Shown in pieces: positions 43,277-64,000 of a stretch of 64,000 bases of DNA; positions within the stretch are counted from its first letter, which is position 1; each line of letters starts with the position of its first letter. Source of the DNA: Harriotta raleighana (lineage: Eukaryota); contig JBNZDD010013678.1 in the NCBI GenBank assembly GCA_050575255.1, positions 4,684,753 to 4,748,752 of the forward strand, read 5' to 3'. The notes beneath the pieces are model-generated. The model had not been told where the DNA came from. It saw nothing but the letters and a program-made list of their open reading frames with translations, and did not search any database. The position numbers and the translations under genes were made by a program.

Positions 43277-44914
43277 CTCTTTGCCAGCAACCACAGTCCC
43301 AACANGCCAACAACCACAGTCCCAACAGCAGCACCAGAACTGGAAACTCGGGATATTTCAGTGGCTCCAGCAGCTCCGTCAACGATGGTGACTCCGGCAA
43401 CTCGGGCACCTCCAGCTGCTGCGGAAAGCCCGGCAGCCCTGGCAGCGCCAGATACTTCAGTCGTTCGGATGCCTCCGGAAACCATGGACACGGTAGTGGT
43501 TCTGATAGCACCAGCGGAACCAATGCTGGCAGCACTGAAACCACTGACACCACCGCCACCAATGCTGGTAGCGCTGACACCGCCACCAATGCTGGTAGCA
43601 CTGACACCGCCACCAATGCTGGTAGCACTGACACCGCCACCAATGCTGGTAGCACTGACACCGACACCAATGCTGGTAGCGCTGACACCGCCACCAATGC
43701 TGGTAGCACTGACACCGCCACCAATGCTGGTAGCGCTGACACCGCCACCAATGCTGGTAGCACTGACACCGCCACCAATGCTGGTAGCGCTGACACCGCC
43801 ACCAATGCTGGTAGCACTGACACCGCCACCAATGCTGGTAGCGCTGACACCGCCACCAATGCTGGTAGCACTGACACCGCCACCAATGCTGGTAGCGCTG
43901 ACACCGCCACCAATGCTGGTAGCACTGACACCGCCACCAATGCTGGTAGCGCTGACACCGCCACCAATGCTGGTAGCACTGACACCGCCACCAATGCTGG
44001 TAGCGCTGACACCGCCACCAATGCTGGTAGCACTGACACCGCCACCAATGCTGGTAGCGCTGACACCGCCACCAATGCTGGTAGCACTGACACCGCCACC
44101 AATGCTGGTAGCGCTGACACCGCCACCAATGCTGGTAGCACTGACACCGCCACCAATGCTGGTAGCGCTGACACCGCCACCAATGCTGGTAGCGCTGACA
44201 CCGACACCAATGCTGGTAGCACTGACACCGACACCAATGCTGGTAGCGCTGACTCGACTGCCAATGCTGGTAGCACTGAAACCACTGACACCGCCACCGC
44301 TGACAGCACTGAAACCACCACCACCGCCACCACCACCGCCAATGCTGGTGGCACTGAAACCACTGACACCGCCACCGCCAATGCTGGCAGCACTGAAACC
44401 TCCACCACCGCCATCACCACCGCCAATGCTGGCAGCACTGAAACCACCGCCACCACCATCGCCAATGCTGGCAGCACTGAAACCACCGCCACCACCATCG
44501 CCAATGCTGGCAGCACTGAAACCACCGCTAATGCTGGTAGCACTGTAACCACCGCTAATGCTGGTAGCACTGTAACCACCACCAATACGAGCAGCACCGG
44601 CAGCACCAGCAGCCATGGAAGCTCCGTCAGCGATGGCAATTCCTCCTCCAGAGCCAGCCATTCCGGTGATGAACGTCTGTCCGTGCAAACCGTATCTCCC
44701 CTCCCACTTTTCTTCTCTGTGTATCTGAGTGCTGCTTGTGGTTGTCAACCTGCTTTCTCTCATCCTCGATTCGCTGGCGGAAACGTAATCTTCCTGCTTC
44801 CAAGGAGGTAAGGATTCTGTGGTGGCTGTCATGGTCTGAGATTTGCGTGTCAGGAGGGGCGATTTAACGGATCTGATGGGTGAGGTGGACAGTCGTCCAG
44901 CCGGAGACACAGAA
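43277..44914 (-). CDS. TTN: Titin exon 7 equivalent with large Gly/Ser repeat insertion
   Basis: SVSPAGRLSTSPIRSVKSP..PPWKQE..EEKWEGRYG..AGKE|gtgagg; 1-nt frame discrepancy at N43305 is probably an assembly gap. Confidence 0.88.
43559..44260 (-). repeat. 27-bp coding tandem repeat, 26 units, (GGGVSATSI)n; degenerate flanks to ~43520 and ~44580
   Basis: Plus-strand unit ccaatgctggtagcRctgacaccgcca; 702 bp / 27 = 26. Confidence 0.97.
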
Positions 44915-48995: not shown

Positions 48996-49086
48996 CAGCA
49001 ACATGTGCTTCAAAGGTTGCGGCACTACCCTCTAGAGCCACAACGCTTTGAAGCGGTTGTATGAAAGTCGGAGCTTGCGTGGCCAT
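48996..49086 (-). CDS. TTN: Titin exon 2 coding part (start codon; exon begins at 49099)
   Basis: ttttag|AGTGCCTATAAAA ATG; 91 coding nt MATQAPTFIQPLQSVVALEGSAATFEAHVAG|gtaagt. Confidence 0.97.
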
Positions 49087-49244
49087 TTTTATAGGCACTC
49101 TAAAACACAACAGAAATCCCTCGGTTAATGACAAAGAATTTTAACTGGTGTCTTCACATGCGAGTTTTGAGTAGAATAATTGTCTAGAAGAATAAAATAA
49201 ATAAGGTTCTTATACCAATGTAGTTAGCTTCACAAAAGTGCCTT

Positions 49245-49700
49245 ACACAACAACAACAACTTGGACTTTTATAGCGCCCTCCACGCAAGATATTGTCTCA
49301 CCTCACTTAACAGTTATGGAGCCTGATTTTGAGCCGATGGGGAGGCAGATGAATGTGACCACAGATGAATGTGGTTGAAAACTAAGGGCGAGAGAGAAGG
49401 CAAGGTGGTGGGTTTGAGGGAGAGTGTTCCACAGTTTGGGGGCGTAGTGGCTAAAAGTGCGACCTCCATTGGTGGAGTACAATTTGTGGGAGACAAGTAG
49501 GAGATCGGTCCCAGTTGAGCGGAGGCTCCGGGTGGTGAATTGGGGAGTGAGGAGGTCGTAGACGTAGAGAGATGCCAGGTAGTGAATGTATTTGAACACG
49601 AGTGTGAGGATCTTAAAGTCGATTTGTTCGATGAAAGGAAGCTAGTGGAGCCTGGGCAAAACTGGTGAGATGGGGGTACACAGTCTGGTCTGGGTAAATG
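49245..49700 (-). mobile_element. L2-like LINE 3' fragment; similar fragments near 5950-6260, 32180-32498, 53850-54065, 58615-59030
   Basis: Remnant ..YDLLTPQFTTRSLRS..GGRTFSHYAPKLWNTLP, typical of the L2 ORF2 end; (gtt)n tail. Confidence 0.7.
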
Positions 49701-50469
49701 TGTGGGCAACAGAAATCACAGTATTTGGCTGACTAGCGGTAATGATTTAAAATAGTTTTTCCCCCTTGAGCTGTTTCTAGTGAGGAATCTTTTAAATTTT
49801 GTGCAGTTCGCCCTCATATTGAAGAAGATTTAATCTTGATATTTCCATGTGTTATCTTCATTTATTCTTTATCTTATGGCAGAGCTATGTAATGTGAGAT
49901 GGAGCTGTGGTATGAGTCATTAGCATGTGGATAAACCTCATAAGTACTTGTGGGATGTAATTCGAGCTGTTTGTGACACAGTTCTATGAAAACAGTTGAT
50001 ACTGAAAAGCTTTGGACATTATAAAAAGAAAGAGATAAAATAAACTTGTGTTATGTAACATTTCTACTTTGCCTACAAAATACACACAGATAGACAACTT
50101 TACAGTGTATCCTGTGAGGCGCTTTGACCCAGCTCAATAACATGATAAGGTTCTATATCAAATGCAATGATTATTATTATAATTTCAGATTGGCCCTGTT
50201 GTAACCACAGATCATATTATGTTGTCCAAATGCAGGCAAAGATGTTAATAAGTGCTTGATATTTTTCTGATCAATATATTTTCAGGAAAGAAACAGAAAA
50301 ATCTTTCAAATCAAATCAGAAATAAATCATTTATTTAAATTAAATTGAAAAATTAAAAAAAAACAATATAGTAAACATTACATTTAATGAAATACTAATA
50401 TATATGCAATGCCATCAATTCAGAAACTTTGATAAACAACTTTATGTCGCAACACTTGTAGTTCTTTAA

Positions 50470-50960
50470 TGGAGTGTAAGTGAGCTTGCAACATTTTCTA
50501 AATCTGAATCTTGGTGTCAGTATAAGTGATGATCAGCTGGCTTGGGGTTGAAGAGCTTGGGTTTAAATTTAGCCAAATGTCAATGATTGACAGAGGACAA
50601 ATGCCACATAGCTAGTGGTACAAATAATAGCTCATACACTGATTCCCTTAAAAAGTCATCACTGCCTGGCTGATGCCATATGCATATCATCAGTACTATT
50701 TTTAGCAGTCCTCAAATCATCCATCCATAGCCTAACCTTGAAAACTTTAAAAGTTACAATTGTCTTTTAGGCTTCCCTCGTTTAATTAAACAGCTATTTT
50801 CTAGATATTTATCCAAACAGAGTTTGTTTCCAAATATTTCAACACTCATCGTTGTCCAGCGATGAATTTCATACACAAAAGACCGACTAACATAAGAATT
50901 AAGTGATCAAAGTTTCAAAATGTATATTTTAAATGAACTTTTCACGCTCCCGAGCACTTA
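50470..50960. promoter_or_regulatory. Candidate muscle enhancer in TTN intron 1
   Basis: MEF2-consensus CTATTTTTAG (50696-50705) and TTAAATTTAG (50563-50572), E-box CAGCTG (~50534), several TAAGTG NKX-type sites. Confidence 0.5.
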
Positions 50961-51076
50961 TATTTAAGGGAATATCATACGACTTAAAAGCTTGTGTTAA
51001 ACAAAAGAATACTTAAATTAAGCAAAGAACCAAGAGGAACAAAATGCCACTTTGGAAGAAACAGAAATCTACTGAC

Positions 51077-51297
51077 CTGAATGTTCAAGAGTGCCCAAGT
51101 AAAGGGGCCAAGCCCTATGGAATATAGGTGTGGAACTGCCTCCTTATCCAGATATTTTTCAACAATCCACCGAGAGAATGGGTATACCTCTTACTAAAAG
51201 GAAACAAAACTACACACAGACTGTGGTCTGAGTGTAGTTTTAATTTTCCTATGCAATCCCTACACCCGAGGCAAGGCTGGGAGTGCCTGAACCGCTC
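51077..51297 (-). other. TTN: TTN non-coding exon 1 (5' UTR); TSS approximate
   Basis: CCCAGCCTTGCCTCGGGTGTAGGGATTGCATAG resembles the mammalian TTN 5' UTR as I recall it; donor TCAG|gtcagt; TATA ~30 nt upstream. Confidence 0.82.
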
Positions 51298-51323
51298 AGA
51301 ATTGCTAACATGGTCGTTTCGCC

Positions 51324-51440
51324 TTTTATACCACAGCTCTACGGACAATTATGCAGCATGATTACCCCAAGACTTCTGATTGGGTATTCCGTCAAGGCTT
51401 CATGGGAAAGGGATCCCGTTATATGGAACCCAACAGCTGT
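51324..51440 (-). promoter_or_regulatory. TTN core promoter: TATA box and E-box
   Basis: TATAAAA on minus at 51324-51330; myogenic E-box AACAGCTGT (CAGCTG 51434-51439). Confidence 0.72.
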
Positions 51441-52424
51441 CAGTCACTTCACTTTTATGCAGACAGTGCTAATTTTGTCGCATTAAGTTCTGAGGGTTAG
51501 TTCTATTCCATCATCTTGTTCATAATGATTAAGTTCAGTTAAAGTAACAACAGACTACGTGTCTGACCCTTTCCTTGGTCGGTTCTTACTTTGCTGTATT
51601 CTTGTTATCACCAAAACTGATAAGGAAAGAATGAAGCCCTTAGCAACAGGACGCATTTGAATGCACAAGTCCTGTCTGTCGCTGTCAATCACTTTCAAGA
51701 CCATTTTGCTCCTCCGACATATGGACACCAGCAACTGTATGTGCCAATCACCAAACCAAACGCAAAACTCTTCTATTTACCAAAGAGCAAATCTAATTTA
51801 AATGTTTTGAAATGCAGACAAACTCCAAACTACAGCAATATTTTTTGGGGGGAGATTCCACAATTGCTTCTTTTTGTATTCAAGTAAAGACTCTCAACAT
51901 ATTCAAAAGGGCATAAGGTAGAATGATATGTAATTCTATCTCATTGTAAAAATGGACTGAAATGTAATGAGAGATCAATTGCTTTGGTTGATTTGAAGGT
52001 TAAGTTGTTAAAATATCATGAAATATAAAACTACACTACTTTCAATTTATTGGTAGAAACTGGTCATGAGAAACAGATTACTTTTGCAAGCTACATCTTA
52101 ATGAAAATAGTAAAAATATTTACTATATATAGTATTGCATTACTATAAAAATACAATTCTGCTAACAAATTCGAAGTGTATTAACACCAAAATCGAAAGC
52201 TGAGATGTTGATGATTTTACGGGGCAAAATTAAGATAAGGAGTTTTATGTAAATAAACCTATCAGGGTGCTCTGTAGTTCCACAGTGAATACTTCAATGC
52301 CTCATATTTCAGATTTTCAATTTCAATCTACATGTACTAACAACCCTTGGCTAATCCTTCAATTTTTCACAATGTTGAGACCTCTCAAAGAACTCCACAG
52401 AACATATTGTAAAGTGAACTGTAG

Positions 52425-52455
<31 letters not shown>

Positions 52456-52814
52456 GACCCACTCACAATACAAAATAACATTTGTATAAGAACATTCACA
52501 TCGAGAGGATGTCACAATCCACTGGACAGTCAGAGATTTGGACCCAAATGGGGGGAGATTGAAATCAGGGAGAATGGAGTGCAGGCAAGGTAGGAGGGTG
52601 GCCAGAGGCGTAGTCAAAGAGGAGAGAAATGGATATACTGTAAAGGGATCAGTTGGTAGTGCACAGTCTTGACTGACACTCCAATGCAGTGTTGCTCCAC
52701 TTTATTATAGTATCTTTGCATTTTATGTGCATTTGAAGGGTTGTCCTATGTGTTCCATGGTAACACAAACTGAAAGGCATCAGCTGCCAAAGAAAAAGAC
52801 ATTGAATAACCTAC

Positions 52815-52977
52815 CCCAACTGAACTTGTCCAGTCTCTGATCTTTGGCCTTTTATATAACTTGCTGCAAGGCATTTCAGATTTGCAGCTGATTCAGTTGT
52901 CACTGTCATTGTCATATCTTTACGACCTTTTTCAGCAGTGTCCTTGATAAAAGTGCATAGTTGTCCTTTAGGTTTTT
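52815..52977 (-). CDS. Candidate linker exon between the CCDC141 Ig exons and TTN
   Basis: ccatttcag| acceptor; open in phase 1 (EKPKGQLC..QVQL); GG|gtaggt donor overlapping the in-frame TAG; no recognisable homology. Confidence 0.35.
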
Positions 52978-54927
52978 CTGAAATGGCAATTGAGATCAAG
53001 TGGAATTAGAAATGTTTCTCCAAATGATGTAGTAATTCATCAATTAGGCATTTTTCACGGTGTACTGGTTTTACCATAGATCTTTTTAAATCCTGTGGAT
53101 TTAGACAAAATAGTCATTATATTAGTTGTTTTTGCATTGATGGTCTTGTTGGTAATATGATTAAATATTAGTGTCCAAACCTATCTTATAGGATATGATT
53201 TCAAATGACAAGTCAAATACCCTTTGCCCTCAACAAGGAGAACTTTGATTGAAGTGAATGGTTTAAAATATAGAATTAGAGGTTAAGTGTTTTAAACCCA
53301 CAATGAAACCTTGCAGACTGTTTTACTGGTTTCTGTGAGAAAATTAGATTTTTACAGCATCATTCATCTTGTAAAATAACCCATTATTAAAACTCATGTT
53401 TATTACCTACCGTAACTATAATAAACTGATTCTGAAATATTAACATAAACCTAATCATTATCTATGACAATATATGTCTGTACTGATGATGCTATATGAT
53501 ATTAAGGGTGACAAACTATGAAGTAAACACTGTTTAGCTCTTACAAATCAACGATAAGGTTGAACGGTTAAAATTCATACACGCCTACATTTTTCAACTT
53601 GCAAAATGCCTACCCTTTCTGCTTGAATAGAACATTTCTCAAGAGAATAATAGGGAGGCAGTCAAATCATTGGGAGACAGTCATCTAATCAATGTTTTTT
53701 TGATGTCATGAATGTGAAAGAGAAATTAGTGTAGATGTAACAATCAGTCGGAAATCAAATCCATTCTAAGGTATTCATTATCATTGGATTCTGTTTCCTG
53801 GAATGTTTTTGGATTGTCTTTATACTACAATAACAGCAAAATTACTTTCTAGAGCAACTTTCACGTTGGGACAATGTCCCAAGGCGCTGTACAGTCAGGT
53901 CAGGACTCGAGCAAGGGGGAGGGACAGGGTAGTGGGGATGGATGGGAGAGAGTTAGATGGGGTGGGATAGAGTTGGGAGGGTAGCGAGGATCTTGAAACC
54001 GGCCTTGAAGGAGCCAAGGGAGGAAGCAAGGCGAAGGGACTGTGGGTGGAGTTCCAGAGTGTGGGGATAATAATCGTGGAAAAAGGGAATTGGATAAGGA
54101 GTTGAAGATGTAGAATACATAACAATACAGAGCAAAAGCAGTGATGTGGGATTAAAATTGGACATTGCACTTTCAACCACTACACACCAAAGCTCTGGAA
54201 CACTCTACCTCAATCCTGCCGCTTTTTCCCCTCTCTCCCCTTTTCCATATCCCTCCTGAAAACCTTCCTTTTCGACCATGCTTACGATCACTTACCCCAC
54301 CCACTCAGATTCAGGCTCCATTATTGTTAAGTGCTCTGAGACACTACCCTGTGTGGATGGCACAATGTGAGTGCATGTTGTTGTTGTATTAGTTTAGATA
54401 GCAACCAATGGATGAGCTGTACCCTATCTTGCGCTTGAAGAGTGCAAATGACCCCCTTGTCTGCTATAATTGATTTCATTCCATGAGTACCATAAATGGA
54501 ATAGGTGGTATTAATCAGTTCATTTTTGAGCTGATAATGGCTGATGTTCTCAGCTAAAGTTTTTTCTCCGCGCCCCAGGCTTCTTCATATTGTTACTGCA
54601 CATTCACATTCAGCAGCTTGGCTTGAAGAATTTCTGTGTTGGAAGTTTATTGAAAACTTTGTCAGTCGATTACTTGGAAATAATACGATTAGCTTCGACC
54701 TTTAGTGCTCCAGTCAGCAGAGACTCTCACTGAATCTCAATGTGATCTTCAACCCTTCTGTCTGAGAAATGAGCATCTACCTAGTCCTGTGCTTAACTTG
54801 AATGTTAACATTTTATCTTGAAGCCATAATTGTCATCCAGCTATCATCACTGGATTAATGATAAGCACAGTGGTACATAATGCAGGAAATATCCAAACAT
54901 TTTTTAATTGTATCAAATCATAATTAC

Positions 54928-55057
54928 CTGTAACAACTACTGAAGCAGAGCAGCACACTTCACCTTCTGTGTTTGTGGCAATGCAACGATACAAGCCACT
55001 ATCAGCTGAGCCAACGTTTCTTTTCCTAAATACATGCGTTTCACCTGAGCTTGTTAC
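54928..55057 (-). CDS. CCDC141: Extra Ig exon, second half, downstream of CCDC141
   Basis: ttcag|GTA, ACAG|gtaatt; ADSGLYRCIATNTEGEVCCSASVVVT; phase 0-1. Confidence 0.75.
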
Positions 55058-55178
55058 CTGAACAAAACAACACATTGTAGTAGTTCAATAATGGCTACGG
55101 GACTAAACAGGTTCCACCTGAATTATCTTTCAAAATAAGTGTGCAAATGGAGAAAAAATAAAAGCAAATGATTCTCAC

Positions 55179-55333
55179 ATTGGAATTTCTGGGTGACAGC
55201 ACTGTGGAATCTTTAAACCACATCACACTTGGCTTGGGTTTTCCTGATATAATACACTGGAGTATCAGATCATTCCCTTGCATCAAAACACAATCAGCAA
55301 ATCTCTTTTCAAAGTCAGGCGCCTTGTCTTGTA
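55179..55333 (-). CDS. CCDC141: Extra Ig exon, first half, downstream of CCDC141
   Basis: ttctag|TA, AAT|gtgaga; APDFEKRFADCVLMQGNDLILQCIISGKPKPSVMWFKD; phase 1-0 fits the donor at 61848. Confidence 0.75.
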
Positions 55334-58159
55334 CTAGAAATAAATGACATTGTTCTTTTTAAAAAAAATTGGGTGAGTAACTGGAATGACATTAGCAGCG
55401 AAAGTTATTTTTAGAAATAAAGTTTCTCGAACAAAGATCTTCATTTGAATAAAATGCTTTATTAGAAAGACAGAGCGTGCAGAGAATCATCCGCTGTAAT
55501 AATCAAGGCCATGCAAATTACTCCTGATTAATTTTCACAGATGCGTTTGCTATAATGAAGAGAAAATTGAACGTTTCGGATACAGAAGAACCAAGGAAAA
55601 AGTTGCCAGTTTGATCAATTTAGCAATACACTTACCACAATACAATCCACTGTTTATCGATATCTTGTACTGAAAGGATTGTGCTGGTAGAGAGTTGAAA
55701 TGCTAATTCCAGGGATGGTTCTGGTATGAAGGAATTTGCAATACTATTGGCAATTAACTTAGAGTTTGTTGAATTAATTTTTTTAATTTTGATTTATTTA
55801 ATTACATTTTAATTTTAATTTTCCAAGCCTTCTATCTATAGGAATATAGGAACAGAAGAAGGCCATTCACACCTTGAGTCTGTTCTGCCATTCAATTAAA
55901 TCATGGCTGATTTGTTCCTCAACTCCAAATACTGTATCAGGCTTTGCCTACATTTCATGACTATATAAGGGTTGCATTGATCGAGAAAACAAACTTGGCA
56001 AAGTTGTGGGTTTCTTTTTTGCCCTTGACAGAGATGCAGTGCATTTTATATTACCTTGCGCTGATCAATAGTCTCCATTCGATACACTTCTACACAATAA
56101 TTTTGTGATTAATTTAATCTTCTACAGTGTTGGAATTGACTTTGTTTTCAAACAGAACAATTTCAGCAAGTCACTTCCCAATGAATGATTTTTTTTTACT
56201 AAATAATTGCGAGCTGCATGCATAAGCCAATCAAATTATATGCAATGGGCAGCAAAAACAAAATAGGAATAGCATATACAGTAGTTCTGACTATTAATAC
56301 ATCTATATAGTGCCCGGGTGCAGAGCTCATGAGAAAAGAGCAATGTGATCCTCTAGGGCATCTTTGGTGGGTGCCTGCTGTTGGTGACTGTTGACGTGAA
56401 TACAGCGACAATCCTGGTGATACAATTACCTCCTTCATTAATTCATTTCACAAAGAAATGTACTCAAAGATTCATGACTGTAGCAAAATTAAATTGACTG
56501 TAAAGCTGCTCAAAAATAATAGCAATCGAATTGGTACCAAAATGAGTACTTTCCATGTAATGTACTTGGGACTTCTTCACTCCAATATGCAGCCCAATGT
56601 TGCTAAGCCTTTGTAAGACAGCTCTGTATTAATTTCTCATACAGGGGCAAAGATTCCTGACTGCTTTGGTGAAACATTAATATTCTTCATTAAATCACTC
56701 ATGAAATAGCATTAATAATTCTTTTAGAGGTGTCTGCTGCACTGTGCTTCGCTTAAAGTTTTGCTTTAATGCCCTTTATGTAGACCTTATTAAACAAAAT
56801 TGGCCTTTTTTTATGGCCTTGTAACTGAAAAAAAATTCTAAGGTTTGGAAAACCGACAGTAATACATTGTCTATTAATGCAATCTCTCAACAACCAGCCG
56901 TATTATGCATGTCTTGATGGTCACCAGAGTTGCGATGACATGAATGTCGGGCTATTTATTTTAAAGTGAGGCTTTTCACAAATTATTTGACATTAATAAC
57001 AGCTGTAGTGTTTTGACTTTGTGGAATAAATGAAGGGATGTCATTAGGCCAGTCGCCGGGTTACCTTTTGATTGAATTGAATTGTTGAGGACATTAAAAG
57101 AATTCTAAAATGCCAGTGAAATAAATTGATTTCTGTTCAGCCTATGAAACCAGAGAATTCAGATTGCCCTGTTGATTAGATCTAGAATTTGTACACAGCT
57201 TTTATTCACGAGAGTCTTTGGGAGGAATTTGCTGATGATCGCCACAATTGTCAATTTGCTCCCATAAGTTTACGGGCATTTAAAGTTCCCTTACTTTCTA
57301 CACAGTTTAAGATTATTCTTCTTATTACTTTCACCTATCCTATTTTCTTCTTAGCCTCTCTAACGCTTATTCAAATAATTAAGACTTAAATATGATTTCT
57401 ATCTCATACTATTTTTTGATTTCCTGAGTCATTTAAATCCTTCTGGACCTTTTTGTTACAACAAATGTCCTCAATTATCTACTATCGTCTCAGCCTTCTG
57501 CTATTCTCCTTTCCTTAGGGATATACCTTATCTCTATACCTTCTTCAATAAAAGTTATCTTTGTTCTTCTTTTGTTCTATTAATTTCTAGTCTCTCCCCA
57601 CCCCAACCCCCTCATCTCCTCCTTATTTCAGTCCCTGAAATTAATTTCAATGTTTCATCTGAATATCCATCCAAGATTAAATCAGGAATTAAATCACCAT
57701 GATTGAGCTGTTGTGGTTTCAAGGGCTTATGAGCAATTGTAAGGTAGCTCACGTAAGCATAAAGCTGGAGCTATTGCTGCTTAATGCTGGACTCGGCTTT
57801 GTTTAAACGTCTGACTGTATCATAATTTCAGAGGCTGAAGAAGAACGATTATTAGGGCAGTTGCATTTGGAACAGCCCTTCACCCCCCTGGACCCATCTT
57901 TCACCAAGAAAAGCTGTGTAGATTGTTTGGCCCTTTGTGGTTGAAGGAAATCTCAACCAAGAGACCAGAAAATGGTTTGATAACAAGATTGATGTTGATA
58001 AAGAAATCACTTCAGCCCATCCCATTCATACCTCCCAAACATCAATCATAGTGTTTAAATGAGTCAACAGTCCAGTCATTGAGCAAATTTTCTTACNCCA
58101 ACTGCCCCTCAATCATAGTGTTTAAATGAGTCAACAGTCCAGTCATTGAGCAAATTTTC

Positions 58160-58412
58160 TTACTCTCCACACGCCTAATAATAATCTCTCAAAAAAAACA
58201 ATAATAAATTGATCACTTCAATCCACAACTGTTTGTGGGACACTGCTGTGCGCATACAAGGTACAACTAGTACAAGGTGCTTTGCTGCTGCATTTCGTCC
58301 ACATTTATATATACAGTCAATTCACTTTACAGCATATTCTGTAAGTGCTTTGAGACGTCTAGAAGACGTGTAAAGTTCTATATCAAATGCAAGGATTGTT
58401 ATTATTATTATT
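58160..58412 (+). mobile_element. tRNA-SINE family copy, truncated
   Basis: Body and (att)n tail match other copies. Confidence 0.72.
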
Positions 58413-61400
58413 GTTGTTGATTACTTTCTACTCTAAAGAAAATCTTCCTGGTATCTGTCCTGAAATTATCCTTTAAAACCCCAAACCTATGTCCTCTTAT
58501 TCTATTGTCCTGAAACATCCTAAATGATTCATCTGGGTTTATTTTTGCAATCCCATTTGACATTTTCTACCCTTCTATGTGGTCTCCTCTGAGTTGTCCT
58601 CTCCCAACTGAAGAAGAACAACAACAAAATTACACTTCTACAGCACCTTTCACTTCAGGAGGACGTCCCAAAGCGCTGAACAGTCAGGTCGGGACCTGAG
58701 CAGGGGGAGGGTCATGGATAGGGAGAGGGGGAGGGAGAGTGGGAGAGGGGAAAGAGTCAGGGGGCGAGCCAAAGGTGTGGTCGAAAAGGAAGGTCTTGAG
58801 ACCGGCCTTGAAGGAGGAAAGGGAGGAAGCAAGGCGGAGGGACTGAGGGATGGAGTTCCATAGTGTGGGAACAGAAAGGCTGAAAGCCCAGCCACCAATG
58901 GTTGGGCGGTTGGGACGAGGACACGGAGAAGGCCTCAGTCTGCTGAAAGGAAGGTGCGGGCAGGCTGATAGGGAGACAGCAGGTCAGAGAGACAGGCGGG
59001 GGCAAGGCCATGAGTGGCCTTGAAAGTGAAGAACCCAGCTTGGCTTTGTTGCTCAATGGTTTAAAGAAAAACATCTATTATATTTGACTGTCAGAGTGGA
59101 CAACCAACTGAGCAATATACTGCAAGTAAGTTTGCGGTTGTGAGGGAGCTATCATTATGACTAGTACATCATTTTCATAAATCTCCAGTTGTTATGTTGA
59201 CACAAAAGTCACACAAAGACATTACATTGTATATGTTACACAGAGACAAGACTCATCCGAGAATAAAATAATAGTTCTTAGTAACACAATTAATAATCTC
59301 AAGTTTATTTTATATCTGAACCAGTAGGAGACACGTTAATACAATGAAAATCAACTCTGGATGTTTTACTGGTCAATACACTCAATGTGTATATTTGTCA
59401 AGATTAGTAATATAGTGTATTGCTTCTCACCTCAGGTGCATGAACTCCACCCTTGTAAACATTTACTTTGTATTGACTTTTGAAGGAATATCAATATCAA
59501 AGTGAACATATTTCTGCAGCAAATACAGTCACGTTCATTTAGGTTGTCCTGATCTGCATAAATTTGAGTTTGTAAGGCATTTTCCTATCACATTACTACA
59601 TTCCTGCATTATTCTAATGGCAAAATATTCTTCTCTTTCCACTTTTTTTTTTAAAAAGGCTGCTTTGCTAAAATATCTAATTTCACTACAGTTACTACAC
59701 TTTATAGTATGTTCCGTGAAGCACTTTGAGACATCTTGAAGATTTGATAATGCGCCATAGCAAATGCAAGGATTACAGTGTGCATGACCGCCATGCAATG
59801 AAAATCTATTCACTTCCGTTGAGGAGAATAACCTCGCTATTGATTCTTGCTGAGAGATGAAGCTGTGCAAAGTTTGCTTTCTCTTTGTTCTTTATCCCTG
59901 CACCCAACTGCATTTTTATATAAATGATATCCGGAATGCTACAACAGAAATGTCAGATGAAGTTGTCAGCCGAACTATTATTTGTTATGTACTAAAGTTA
60001 ACAGAATTGAACAAACAAACTTTGCCTTCAGATGACATCTGACACCATAGACCATAAAGTTACTACTGGTAACCCATATATTGCTGTACCTGTAGAACAT
60101 GTATGTAGGGAGACATAGGGAGATAAAAATTTACTATAATATAAATTTAATTTTTGGATTTACAAGAACAAAATGTAAAAATAATTCAAAGAAAAAAAAC
60201 ATAAGTTATCTCTGCTTATTGCATGTTGTATAGTTTGCATTGTTTTGTTTGACGTGAGAAAGGAACTGCATTCATGCTACCTTTCACACATAGGAATTTA
60301 TTTAAATTGTAAAATACGAACATCAGAAGTGACTTTTAATGTGAACTACCTTGGATCCAACCTCCACATAAGTCAACCTCGAAACAGGCCAATATGTCCA
60401 GTGTATTTTCATTGCAACGAGCAGAGTAGAAAGTGCATTGTGTTAACCTGCATTTTTCAGTGTCTCTTAGTCAGTTTGGTTAAATTGGGATACCATTCCA
60501 CTATCAAAGGCCAGATTCAATAAATTGGATTTTGTTGGTCTCAGAGTGAGTGAAACCAAAGGTGAGGAATCATACTGTAATGTACACAGTGGAAAAGAGT
60601 AACAATACCAGGAACCAATACAAATGCAGCAATAAATTGTTGATAAAGTTTTGTCAACGCATTGCAAAGCTGTACAGGGAAATTTGCAGGGGGGAAAATG
60701 TAATTCATTTTAGGGACACATAGCCTTTCCATCTTCCTAAACTTTTAACTAATTAAAACTCATTTCAGAAACTAATTTCAGCTCAAAGCAATTTAAAAAA
60801 TTAAGAAGACTGAAATGTAATTATATTGGTGATCTGCTGTAGAGTTTTGTCAATGCTGCCTCAGAATTAATTTGCTTTAAATGCTTTTTTGTATGACTTC
60901 CCTAGTCTTTGTCAAAACGTACTGTACATTAAATCTTCATTGATTGTAAATTCTTATTTTACTCCCTTCTTTCTGTCTCATAGATTGGATGAGAGTGCAG
61001 ACATTCGTTTTTGTTCCCAGACTTCAGTCACTGTCTTGCTATCAGGTTGCAAATATATACTCTATTACCAGTTTGGGGTAAATCACAGCACATTTTCTAC
61101 TGCTTCATGCACAGTGCATTATAACATTAACACACTCCACTACTTATTCATCTAAAATTCCACCTGATCATTTTCCATTGTATCTATTCCAAAACATATT
61201 ACACAGACAGTATCAGGAAGATAAAGTTTTCTCACAAAAAAAGTTTCATATGTTAAAATATATAGATATGTTTAAATTCATCATAAAAATAGTTTCAAAT
61301 TTTTTTTTGATAAGAAACAGATAAGAATATCAGAAAGTGTGCAAATTAAAAACTGGTCAAATTGCTCAGTTTTTTGTGTTAACACTACTGTGAATGTGAA

Positions 61401-61734
61401 CGAACACGATGAAGGTTTTATTCAGTGTCACTGACTGTGTTATTAACAGTACGATTCCGTTAATGCTGTGCATCGGTACCGGAATATTATGACATCTCAC
61501 TGAGAAACAACAGTCAATGTTTCAAATTACATTACTAACATTTACCAGCATTTCAGTGAAATTTGGAATTTTCAATAAAAACGTTAATATTAAAAACTCT
61601 TTTGTGGTGCAGAGGCAGTGCATTATCATAGAAACATTGCATTGTGATATTATTTGTGGAAAGGACAGGTACCAACTTTATTTTTAGTACAAGGTGAAAA
61701 ACATCAATGTAATCAAAACAGTGATACATAACAG

Positions 61735-62020
61735 TTAAATAAACAGTGTATACATTAGAAACAAGCTAACACACACTATACACAGCCAAGCTAGAAAGGT
61801 GAGCCAGTCTATGGGATCAGTGTGGAAACATCCGAGTCTGCATTTACCTTGTACTTGAAGTATAGCAGTGGAACTGATAGTGCCACTAGAGTTTATAGCT
61901 CGTACAACATAAATGCCTGAATCTTTATCAGACACCTTCTGAATGAAAAGAATGTGTTTGCCTTCCTTTTGTGAAACTTCTAAGCGCTGATCTGTTGTCA
62001 GCTTTTGTCCATTCTTGTAC
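61735..62020 (-). CDS. CCDC141: CCDC141 last exon: second half of the Ig domain plus hydrophobic C-terminal tail; internal donor at 61848
   Basis: ttcag|G; YKNGQKL..DSGIYVVRAINSSGTISSTAILQVQGKCRL..WLTFLAWLCIVCVSLFLMYTLFI*; AATAAA at 61677-61682. Confidence 0.88.
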
Positions 62021-63342: not shown

Positions 63343-64000
63343 CATGTCAAAGTTGGTTCTGGGAATCCTGATACTTCTATTTCCAAGGTCACAGGAGAAC
63401 CTTCTACCACATTGACATTAGATAAGAGCTTGGAGAAGCTTGGTGTTGTACCAGTCAGGAAGCGCATAACTGTGTTGTTCAATGGACCTTGGATGCCCTC
63501 CCGGATGATGGTTTCTCTGTGGGGGCCTGTGGTGTCATGCATGGGTGGGCACGCACCGAGGGACGCCGTTAGTGGTTGACTTGAAACATGGAATTCATTG
63601 CTGTTAGAATCCATTCGGTTCGCAACCCGGTCACTCTTGGGTTCATGCAGTCGTGACACCCGAGTCTCAATCACACTCTCATGCACATCGTAAGTCTGCA
63701 GCTGAGATTCATGCACTCGACGGACAATATCACGGGTTGAGGATTTAGTCACGATTTGGGTGGCCACGATATTTGAACGGGTGCTGGAAACGAGAGTGAG
63801 TGCAGGGATTGTCAGTGGGCGCTGGATAAAAGAGGAAGGCTCGGCAGAGGGTCCAGTGCAGGGAGTTGAACGGTGAGATGAATAATAGTCAGGCTCATGA
63901 GAAGCTTGCGGACTTGAATGATTTATGGTATCAGCCGTGGCAACAGGTGCTACTGGGTCAGAGCGATCAGTCATTCTGCTCCAGTCCATTTCCATTTGTG
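63343..64000 (-). CDS. CCDC141: CCDC141 penultimate exon (starts beyond window end)
   Basis: Ser/Thr-rich linker then PSFSKLLSNVNVVEGSPVTLEIEVSGFPEPTLTW|gtgggt; position immediately upstream of TTN as in human. Confidence 0.9.

Follow-up and report, generated by a model that had tools for sequence, protein, structure and literature searches.

Can a living vertebrate still produce CCDC141 and titin as a single chain? The question is raised by a stretch of 64,000 nucleotides (nt) from the chimaera Harriotta raleighana (GenBank assembly GCA_050575255.1, contig JBNZDD010013678.1, positions 4,684,753 to 4,748,752; the whole stretch is hereafter the window), in which CCDC141 and TTN, the titin gene, are adjacent on the same strand. 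Between the first immunoglobulin (Ig) domain of CCDC141, Ig1, and the start of TTN lie three further exons, here called A, B and C, and an earlier note on this DNA had suggested that they carry an in-frame read-through into titin. As judged from the sequence, an in-frame join from exon C to TTN exon 2 is a serious possibility: exon C likely ends in an ancient conserved splice site of phase 2, and the 13 nt preceding the titin start codon are open in the matching frame. The N-terminus of titin is treated as fixed at Z1, and the question now comes down to one junction, 52815>49099, with the corresponding joins of shark, gar, lungfish, lizard and chicken.

A continuous frame from CCDC141 into titin

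When the equivalents of CCDC141 exons 23 and 24, exons A, B and C, and TTN exons 2, 3 and 4 are spliced in silico, the frame stays open throughout and reads ...GQVQLG-VPIK-MATQAP from exon C into titin. The features concerned are listed below in the order of transcription, with window positions.

63343..64000 (minus strand): 3' part of the large unique exon of CCDC141, equivalent to exon 23; closes with the first half of Ig1; donor at 63343, phase 2
61848..62020 (minus strand): exon-24 equivalent of CCDC141; second half of Ig1, internal phase-1 donor AAG/GTAAAT
61677..61847 (minus strand): transmembrane (TM) tail of CCDC141 reached by read-through; stop near 61737, AATAAA at 61682
55179..55333 (minus strand): exon A, 155 nt; first half of the second Ig (Ig2), phase 1 to 0
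54928..55057 (minus strand): exon B, 130 nt; second half of Ig2, phase 0 to 1
52815..52977 (minus strand): linker exon C, 163 nt, 55 codons; phase 1 to 2, no recognised domain
52701..52814 (minus strand): alternative 3' end of exon C; TAG at 52813-52811 overlapping the donor, AATAAA at 52706-52701
51616..51636 (minus strand): strong acceptor ahead of the TTN promoter, in competition with that of TTN exon 2; reached by a phase-2 splice, it gives a stop after 10 codons
51330-51324 (minus strand): TTN TATA box
about 51300-51077 (minus strand): non-coding TTN exon 1; internal acceptors at 51259, 51193 and 51114, no ATG
48996..49099 (minus strand): TTN exon 2; 13-nt leader at 49099-49087, ATG at 49086
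48564-48361 (minus strand): TTN exon 3, encoding with exon 4 the rest of Z1, and Z2
47603-47316 (minus strand): TTN exon 4, encoding with exon 3 the rest of Z1, and Z2

The exon map given in the earlier note is borne out: 55333-55179, 55057-54928 and 52977-52815 are bounded by AG and GT, the donors at 61848 and 54928 are of phase 1 and that at 52815 is of phase 2. The same is true of the 13 stop-free nt before the TTN ATG, through which a phase-2 splice reads G-V-P-I-K-M-A-T-Q. Among the tested routes that keep the whole of Z1, the open ones all pass through exon C into TTN exon 2. Splicing directly from 61848 or 54928 to TTN exon 2 meets a stop after E-C-L, and the exon-23 donor, also tried with this acceptor, gives an immediate stop.

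The earlier note had further pointed out that 61848 and 54928 are frame-compatible with TTN exons 3 and 4, which would allow a fusion by either entry. These frames are indeed open, and the donor at 61848 is apparently used in shark and ray models having short alternative tails (tails with no match in the intergenic region of the window). However, 16 of the 19 mapped TTN junctions are of phase 1, so that an open frame is expected and carries no information, and the phase-1 routes were rejected as evidence. In addition, Z1 would lose its first third on entry at exon 3, and exon 2 has to be skipped in either case. We consider a fusion of this kind highly improbable.

Exons A and B, and probably exon C, belong to CCDC141

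By sequence comparison, exons A and B are an ordinary second Ig of CCDC141, annotated across jawed vertebrates, and orthologues of the exons of the two-Ig CCDC141 isoform. They encode one more I-set Ig, as had been claimed: exon A covers Pfam I-set positions 1-44 (E 1.7e-8) and exon B positions 50-90 (E 2.7e-6), with 56% and 69% identity, respectively, to the epaulette shark protein (Hemiscyllium XP_060684102, P0134). The locus follows the two-Ig pattern of jawed vertebrates, namely a phase-1 donor within the exon of the TM tail and, after it, an I-set Ig2 divided between two exons. A complete Ig2 was found in 91 of the 246 CCDC141-family entries fetched, and Ig2-bearing models come from sturgeons, paddlefish, gars, bichirs, lungfish, squamates, alligator and birds; no mammal occurs among the 120 CCDC141 matches listed (best 120 of 497). 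The extra Ig is accordingly not peculiar to Harriotta raleighana, and the fused isoform suggested in the earlier note is partly supported, as a possible in-frame join to TTN exon 2. Elsewhere in the genome exon A has weak paralogous Ig matches alone. A short-query protein search with exon A returned no match, a weak test whose missing relatives were later found by another query, and a phmmer search with it was swamped by multi-Ig proteins.

Two Mobula models (P0153 and P0156) stop one residue past Ig1, possibly because exon A of these rays is interrupted by a premature stop. In sturgeon and paddlefish the models end 2-3 residues past Ig2. Decay of Ig2 and exon C may be under way in some lineages.

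Exon C, called the weak link of the chain in the earlier note, turned out to be better supported than claimed, with a counterpart in shark and a phase-2 donor inferred in lizards. The peptide of 52815-52977 aligns with the 54-residue post-Ig2 exon of the Hemiscyllium protein (score 39, shuffle maximum 38, 0/2000 shuffles), against which exon C was the best of 45 intergenic open reading frames (ORFs). The support is moderate, since BLASTP of exon C against the whole 1844-amino-acid (aa) protein has its best match at residues 1795-1816 with an E of only 0.24. With its phase 1 start and 55 codons, exon C fits a post-Ig2 exon of about 50-56 codons, and it is single copy at the DNA level. What it shares with the bony-vertebrate linker is its position, its phase, its length and an E-K-x-K-like start. 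Taken together, these comparisons suggest that exon C is probably a real exon, and likely the ancient linker exon of CCDC141. A short-query protein search with exon C found no match (a weak test), nor did the ESM Atlas at a threshold of at least 0.9. An Ig label was considered and not given, the sole Pfam match being C2-set with E 0.059.

The candidate phase-2 donor at 52815

Splice sites were scored with a matrix built on 38 junctions mapped in the locus, 2 of 40 having been dropped beforehand as apparent mis-calls. The donor at 52815 (GGG/GTAGGT, phase 2) is the sole donor-quality GT in exon C and outscores 18 of the 38 mapped donors, which makes it one of median strength. GT sites scoring as well are rare in the intergenic region (15/676, four of these at known exon edges), and an in-phase donor as good or better was met in 2.6% of 47,200 exon-sized intronic windows, and 121 of 11,781 stop triplets coincide with one.

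Predicted proteins of lizards and other vertebrates point to the same site. The peptides of two Varanus isoforms fit one shared downstream exon solely with a phase-2 donor at codon 55 (23/23 nt; 0/2000 shuffles), which implies an exon of 163 nt, as exon C. A cross-species comparison of Lacerta with Podarcis gives phase 2 at codon 53 (67/77 nt; 0/2000 shuffles), and Pogona and Tiliqua isoforms diverge at the same linker residue. Manakin and lungfish models stop on the branch residue (codon 56 in lungfish), as a phase-2 donor would when read through. An internal acceptor at this residue, instead of a donor, is disfavoured because three species branch after the same codon. These models suggest that lizards have a phase-2 donor at the corresponding codon, and the donor of exon C is likely an ancient conserved splice site. 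Since Lacerta and Varanus differ in the frame used for the squamate downstream exon, this exon would not explain why the phase of the donor was kept.

The leader of TTN exon 2

On the titin side, the 13 nt before the ATG of exon 2 are open in the titin frame as V-P-I-K. Two vertebrate loci from a metagenome collection (L018 and L019) keep the 13-nt leader, open as V-P-T-x before the ATG. We presume that they are from bony fish, possibly as two tandem titin copies. Over the three sequences, the leader varies at 0/4 first, 2/4 second and 4/5 third codon positions, and the coding part at 2, 2 and 19 of 29, respectively; the pattern of the leader looks coding-like. The human TTN leader is also 13 bp long (PMC13586513).

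Several observations on this region stand apart from the junction itself. Exon 2 starts with G in both fish loci (L018:2124-2136, L019:3508-3520) and with A in the window; a phase-2 donor ending in TG, like that of exon 23, would hence give Trp in the former and a stop in the latter. The first 330 nt of L019 (L019:1-330) have 29% GC and an ORF unlike the rest of the contig, possibly a chimeric join with microbial DNA. A donor motif like that of TTN exon 1 opens L018, and the length of exon 1 in the window fits the 212-bp human exon 1 (PMC13586513). Exon 1 has no ATG in the window, and PMC13586513 describes two upstream open reading frames (uORFs) there as highly conserved; because of the missing ATG, the idea that a uORF constrains the 13-nt leader was rejected for Harriotta raleighana. 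GTDB and viral collections gave no match to TTN exon 2.

The ends of CCDC141 upstream of exon A

A transcript reaching exon A must pass two earlier ends. The donor at 61848 sits within the terminal exon that carries the TM tail of CCDC141 and outscores 33 of the 38 mapped donors; read through, it leads to a tail 89% identical over 94 aa to that of Callorhinchus milii, followed by AATAAA at 61682. This TM tail is the usual end of CCDC141 in cartilaginous-fish models, including all three from C. milii. Further upstream, reading through the exon-23 donor (63343-63324) gives a short W-W-V-A-Y tail and a stop; the first 174 CCDC141 entries include 12 with such an end, which agrees with the TM-less isoform 1 of CCDC141 (PMC12657953). 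The human gene is described in the same source as having 24 exons, with one Ig plus TM at the end.

A proposed composite exon with two fates

We propose that exon C is composite, with two fates: its own stop, or a phase-2 splice into TTN exon 2. Most transcripts reaching exon C would likely end at its stop, the product being a soluble CCDC141 with two Igs. The others, a minority, would continue beyond the polyadenylation signal of exon C, skip TTN exon 1 and splice 52815>49099. Conjoined transcripts usually skip the first exon of the downstream gene. The fusion transcript would thereby escape three earlier ends (the exon-23 read-through, the TM tail and the end of exon C), and titin would gain about 1,870 CCDC141 residues (1715 + 95 + 54 + 4) without the membrane anchor. 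Z1-Z2 would then come after the spectrin repeats, the two CCDC141 Igs (Ig1 and Ig2) and a flexible linker of 55 residues, and the predicted protein would tie the Z-disc end of titin covalently to a nesprin-binding spectrin rod. Mouse CCDC141 has been shown to bind nesprin (PMC12657953), a link that by analogy may extend to the fusion. The junction itself would be a survivor of an ancestral single gene.

The sequence itself shows the exons with their phases, the open joined frame, Ig2, and the stop and AATAAA beyond the donor; use of the donor of exon C, its pairing with TTN exon 2 and a resulting protein are inferred. The parts of this reading differ in strength, and the probabilities given to it and to its alternatives are judgements, not computed values. 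That an in-frame CCDC141-titin mRNA is made as a minor product comes close to an even chance, if slightly below it; that the fused protein is functional is more doubtful. The broadest version would hold that jawed vertebrates never fully split CCDC141 from titin, that linker and leader are the halves of an ancestral coding junction kept since the parting of chimaeras and bony vertebrates, and that a titin whose extra 1,870-residue spectrin-Ig head links the Z-disc to nesprin or costameres is made in cartilaginous fishes, and perhaps in lungfish, gar and sauropsids as well; we regard it as rather unlikely.

Evidence weighing against the junction

A number of observations speak against this proposal. 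The first concern the 3' end of exon C. Reading through 52815 leads immediately to the stop TAG at 52813-52811 and then to AATAAA at 52706 (a signal expected there by chance in 25% of cases), features of an alternative terminal exon. The Hemiscyllium protein, the single shark model with a counterpart of exon C, terminates there; the linker exon ends at codon 54 in the shark model, at 51 in that of gar and at 56 in that of lungfish. Exon C may simply be the last exon of a soluble two-Ig CCDC141, the donor motif being chance or an unused relic and the genes being separate; TTN has its own TATA box and an exon 1 only 1.4 kb downstream, and CCDC141 already has two other read-through ends. However, a real phase-2 donor, when read through, also predicts models with immediate-stop ends, the chance of a coincidental donor is 1-2.6%, and the isoforms of lizards diverge, in phase 2, at the same codon. 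Such a purely terminal exon is, in our judgement, unlikely, with a substantial chance nonetheless of being the right answer.

A second group of observations concerns the partner of the donor. Every tested route through TTN exon 1 meets a stop. The acceptors at 51616, 51259, 51193 and 51114 compete with that of TTN exon 2, and all lead to stops; the TTN exon 2 acceptor is not strong, with a pyrimidine fraction of 0.62 vs 0.875 at 51616. Sauropsid models join the linker donor to stop-containing exons, and the lizard and bird evidence for this donor consists of predicted protein models without DNA. The donor at 52815 may accordingly be used and yet be captured by a stop-containing exon, at 51616 or in the 117-nt 3' half of TTN exon 1, giving CCDC141-Ig2 a short tail; RNA spanning both genes would then probably be degraded and be at most regulatory for TTN. 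A legend on the human spanning RNA that marks a stop position (PMC12657953) fits such a capture. Against it, a search of the window with 7 peptides of the sauropsid downstream exons found no counterpart (best 17/300 shuffles), and capture leaves unexplained why phase 2 and an open 13-nt leader were kept jointly. We hold this outcome to be quite unlikely.

The remaining points bear on the in-frame join into TTN exon 2 itself. The splice-site matrix is small (38 sites only), and the coding-like pattern of the leader is drawn from three sequences. Human TTN keeps its 13-nt leader beside a CCDC141 that is described as having one Ig and ending at exon 24; the leader therefore needs no bridge, and by itself is no proof of a live fusion. 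Ig2 occurs in just 1 of 61 cartilaginous-fish CCDC141 entries, that of the epaulette shark. Of the 10 pairwise comparisons made with exon C, the 9 against tails of gar, lungfish, bichir, lizards and birds gave no significant score, and profiles of bony-vertebrate tails gave exon C scores that were matched by 321/2000 and 143/2000 shuffles; orthology of exon C with the sauropsid exon is thus positional. Finally, the titin start motif stands at residue 1 in the three vertebrate titins carrying it (3/3) and is internal in 0 of 403 fetched proteins, a weak test for fused proteins because their lengths lay outside the 574-2000 aa to which the CCDC141 search was limited.

Surroundings of the locus

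The unique exon of CCDC141 begins beyond the window, at extended coordinate 64325, and has its best protein match in C. milii (76% over this exon). The remainder of the gene maps upstream at 67-95% identity, and its start, at extended coordinate 106861, agrees with that of the C. milii model. Zinc-finger exons, which we take to be of ZNF385 type, lie upstream on the same strand at extended coordinates 200813-197591, some 137 kb past the window end. The presence of zinc-finger exons upstream agrees with published synteny (PMC12198301). A single N at 58097, in the intron that separates Ig1 from exon A, is flanked by a duplication some 55 nt long (58120-58040), probably an artefact of an assembly gap.

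Within TTN, the exon upstream of the Z-repeat region (44919-43270, minus strand) bears a large Gly/Ser-rich expansion of some 25-30 near-identical 9-residue units of the G-G-G-V-S-A-T-S-I type, in a 580-codon open frame with one N at 43305. Its first 90 residues match residues 306-397 of bat titin; the repeat part had no protein match.

Comparison with known systems

Two elements of the present picture are already published, namely the single-gene ancestor and the human spanning RNA; what is new is the phase-2 donor, likely conserved, and the way it matches the conserved leader of titin. Searches of an open-access library listed no paper on an in-frame vertebrate CCDC141-TTN fusion, and the available passages of the elephant-shark connectin paper (PMC12241362) do not mention CCDC141. 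Should the join prove absent, the gain would be a modest one of annotation, a two-Ig CCDC141 isoform in a holocephalan.

The closest annotated proteins are the two-Ig CCDC141 isoforms of RefSeq/GenBank (Hemiscyllium XP_060684102, gar XP_015214533, lungfish XP_043931242, Varanus XP_044282875 and Gallus XP_040559750), which share the order Ig1-Ig2-linker; unlike the proposed fusion, all stop at or after the linker exon and none continues into titin. At the RNA level, a human FLJ39502(CCDC141)-TTN spanning transcript (Labeit et al. 2006, cited in PMC12657953 and PMC12198301) runs from CCDC141 into TTN in a vertebrate. Human CCDC141, however, is given as ending in one Ig plus TM, and the legend marks a stop position.

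Invertebrates offer single genes of similar build. Drosophila sls with Zormin (PMC7039190) combines a CCDC141-like spectrin-repeat start and titin-type Igs, and a CCDC141-like start leading into tandem Igs is also found in a Saccoglossus titin-like protein (XP_006823021, P0176) and in locust (P0262), flatworm and insect models. Comparison of the first Igs of Drosophila sls and Saccoglossus with Ig1, Ig2, Z1 and Z2 gave no clear one-to-one match.

The most direct precedent is the 'connectitin' of Hanashima et al. 2025 (PMC12198301), SESTD1-CCDC141-TTN, a proposal that derives CCDC141 and titin from one gene, intact in cnidarians and placozoans and split into three genes in bilaterians. The available passages contain no second CCDC141 Ig, linker exon or in-frame vertebrate junction; gene order and strand are the same as in the Harriotta locus. 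If the junction proposed here is real, it would suggest a direct link from titin to the nucleus or to the costamere and would give a reason for the adjacency of CCDC141 and TTN, a point left open in these passages, and the ancestral connectitin would survive as one chain in a living vertebrate.

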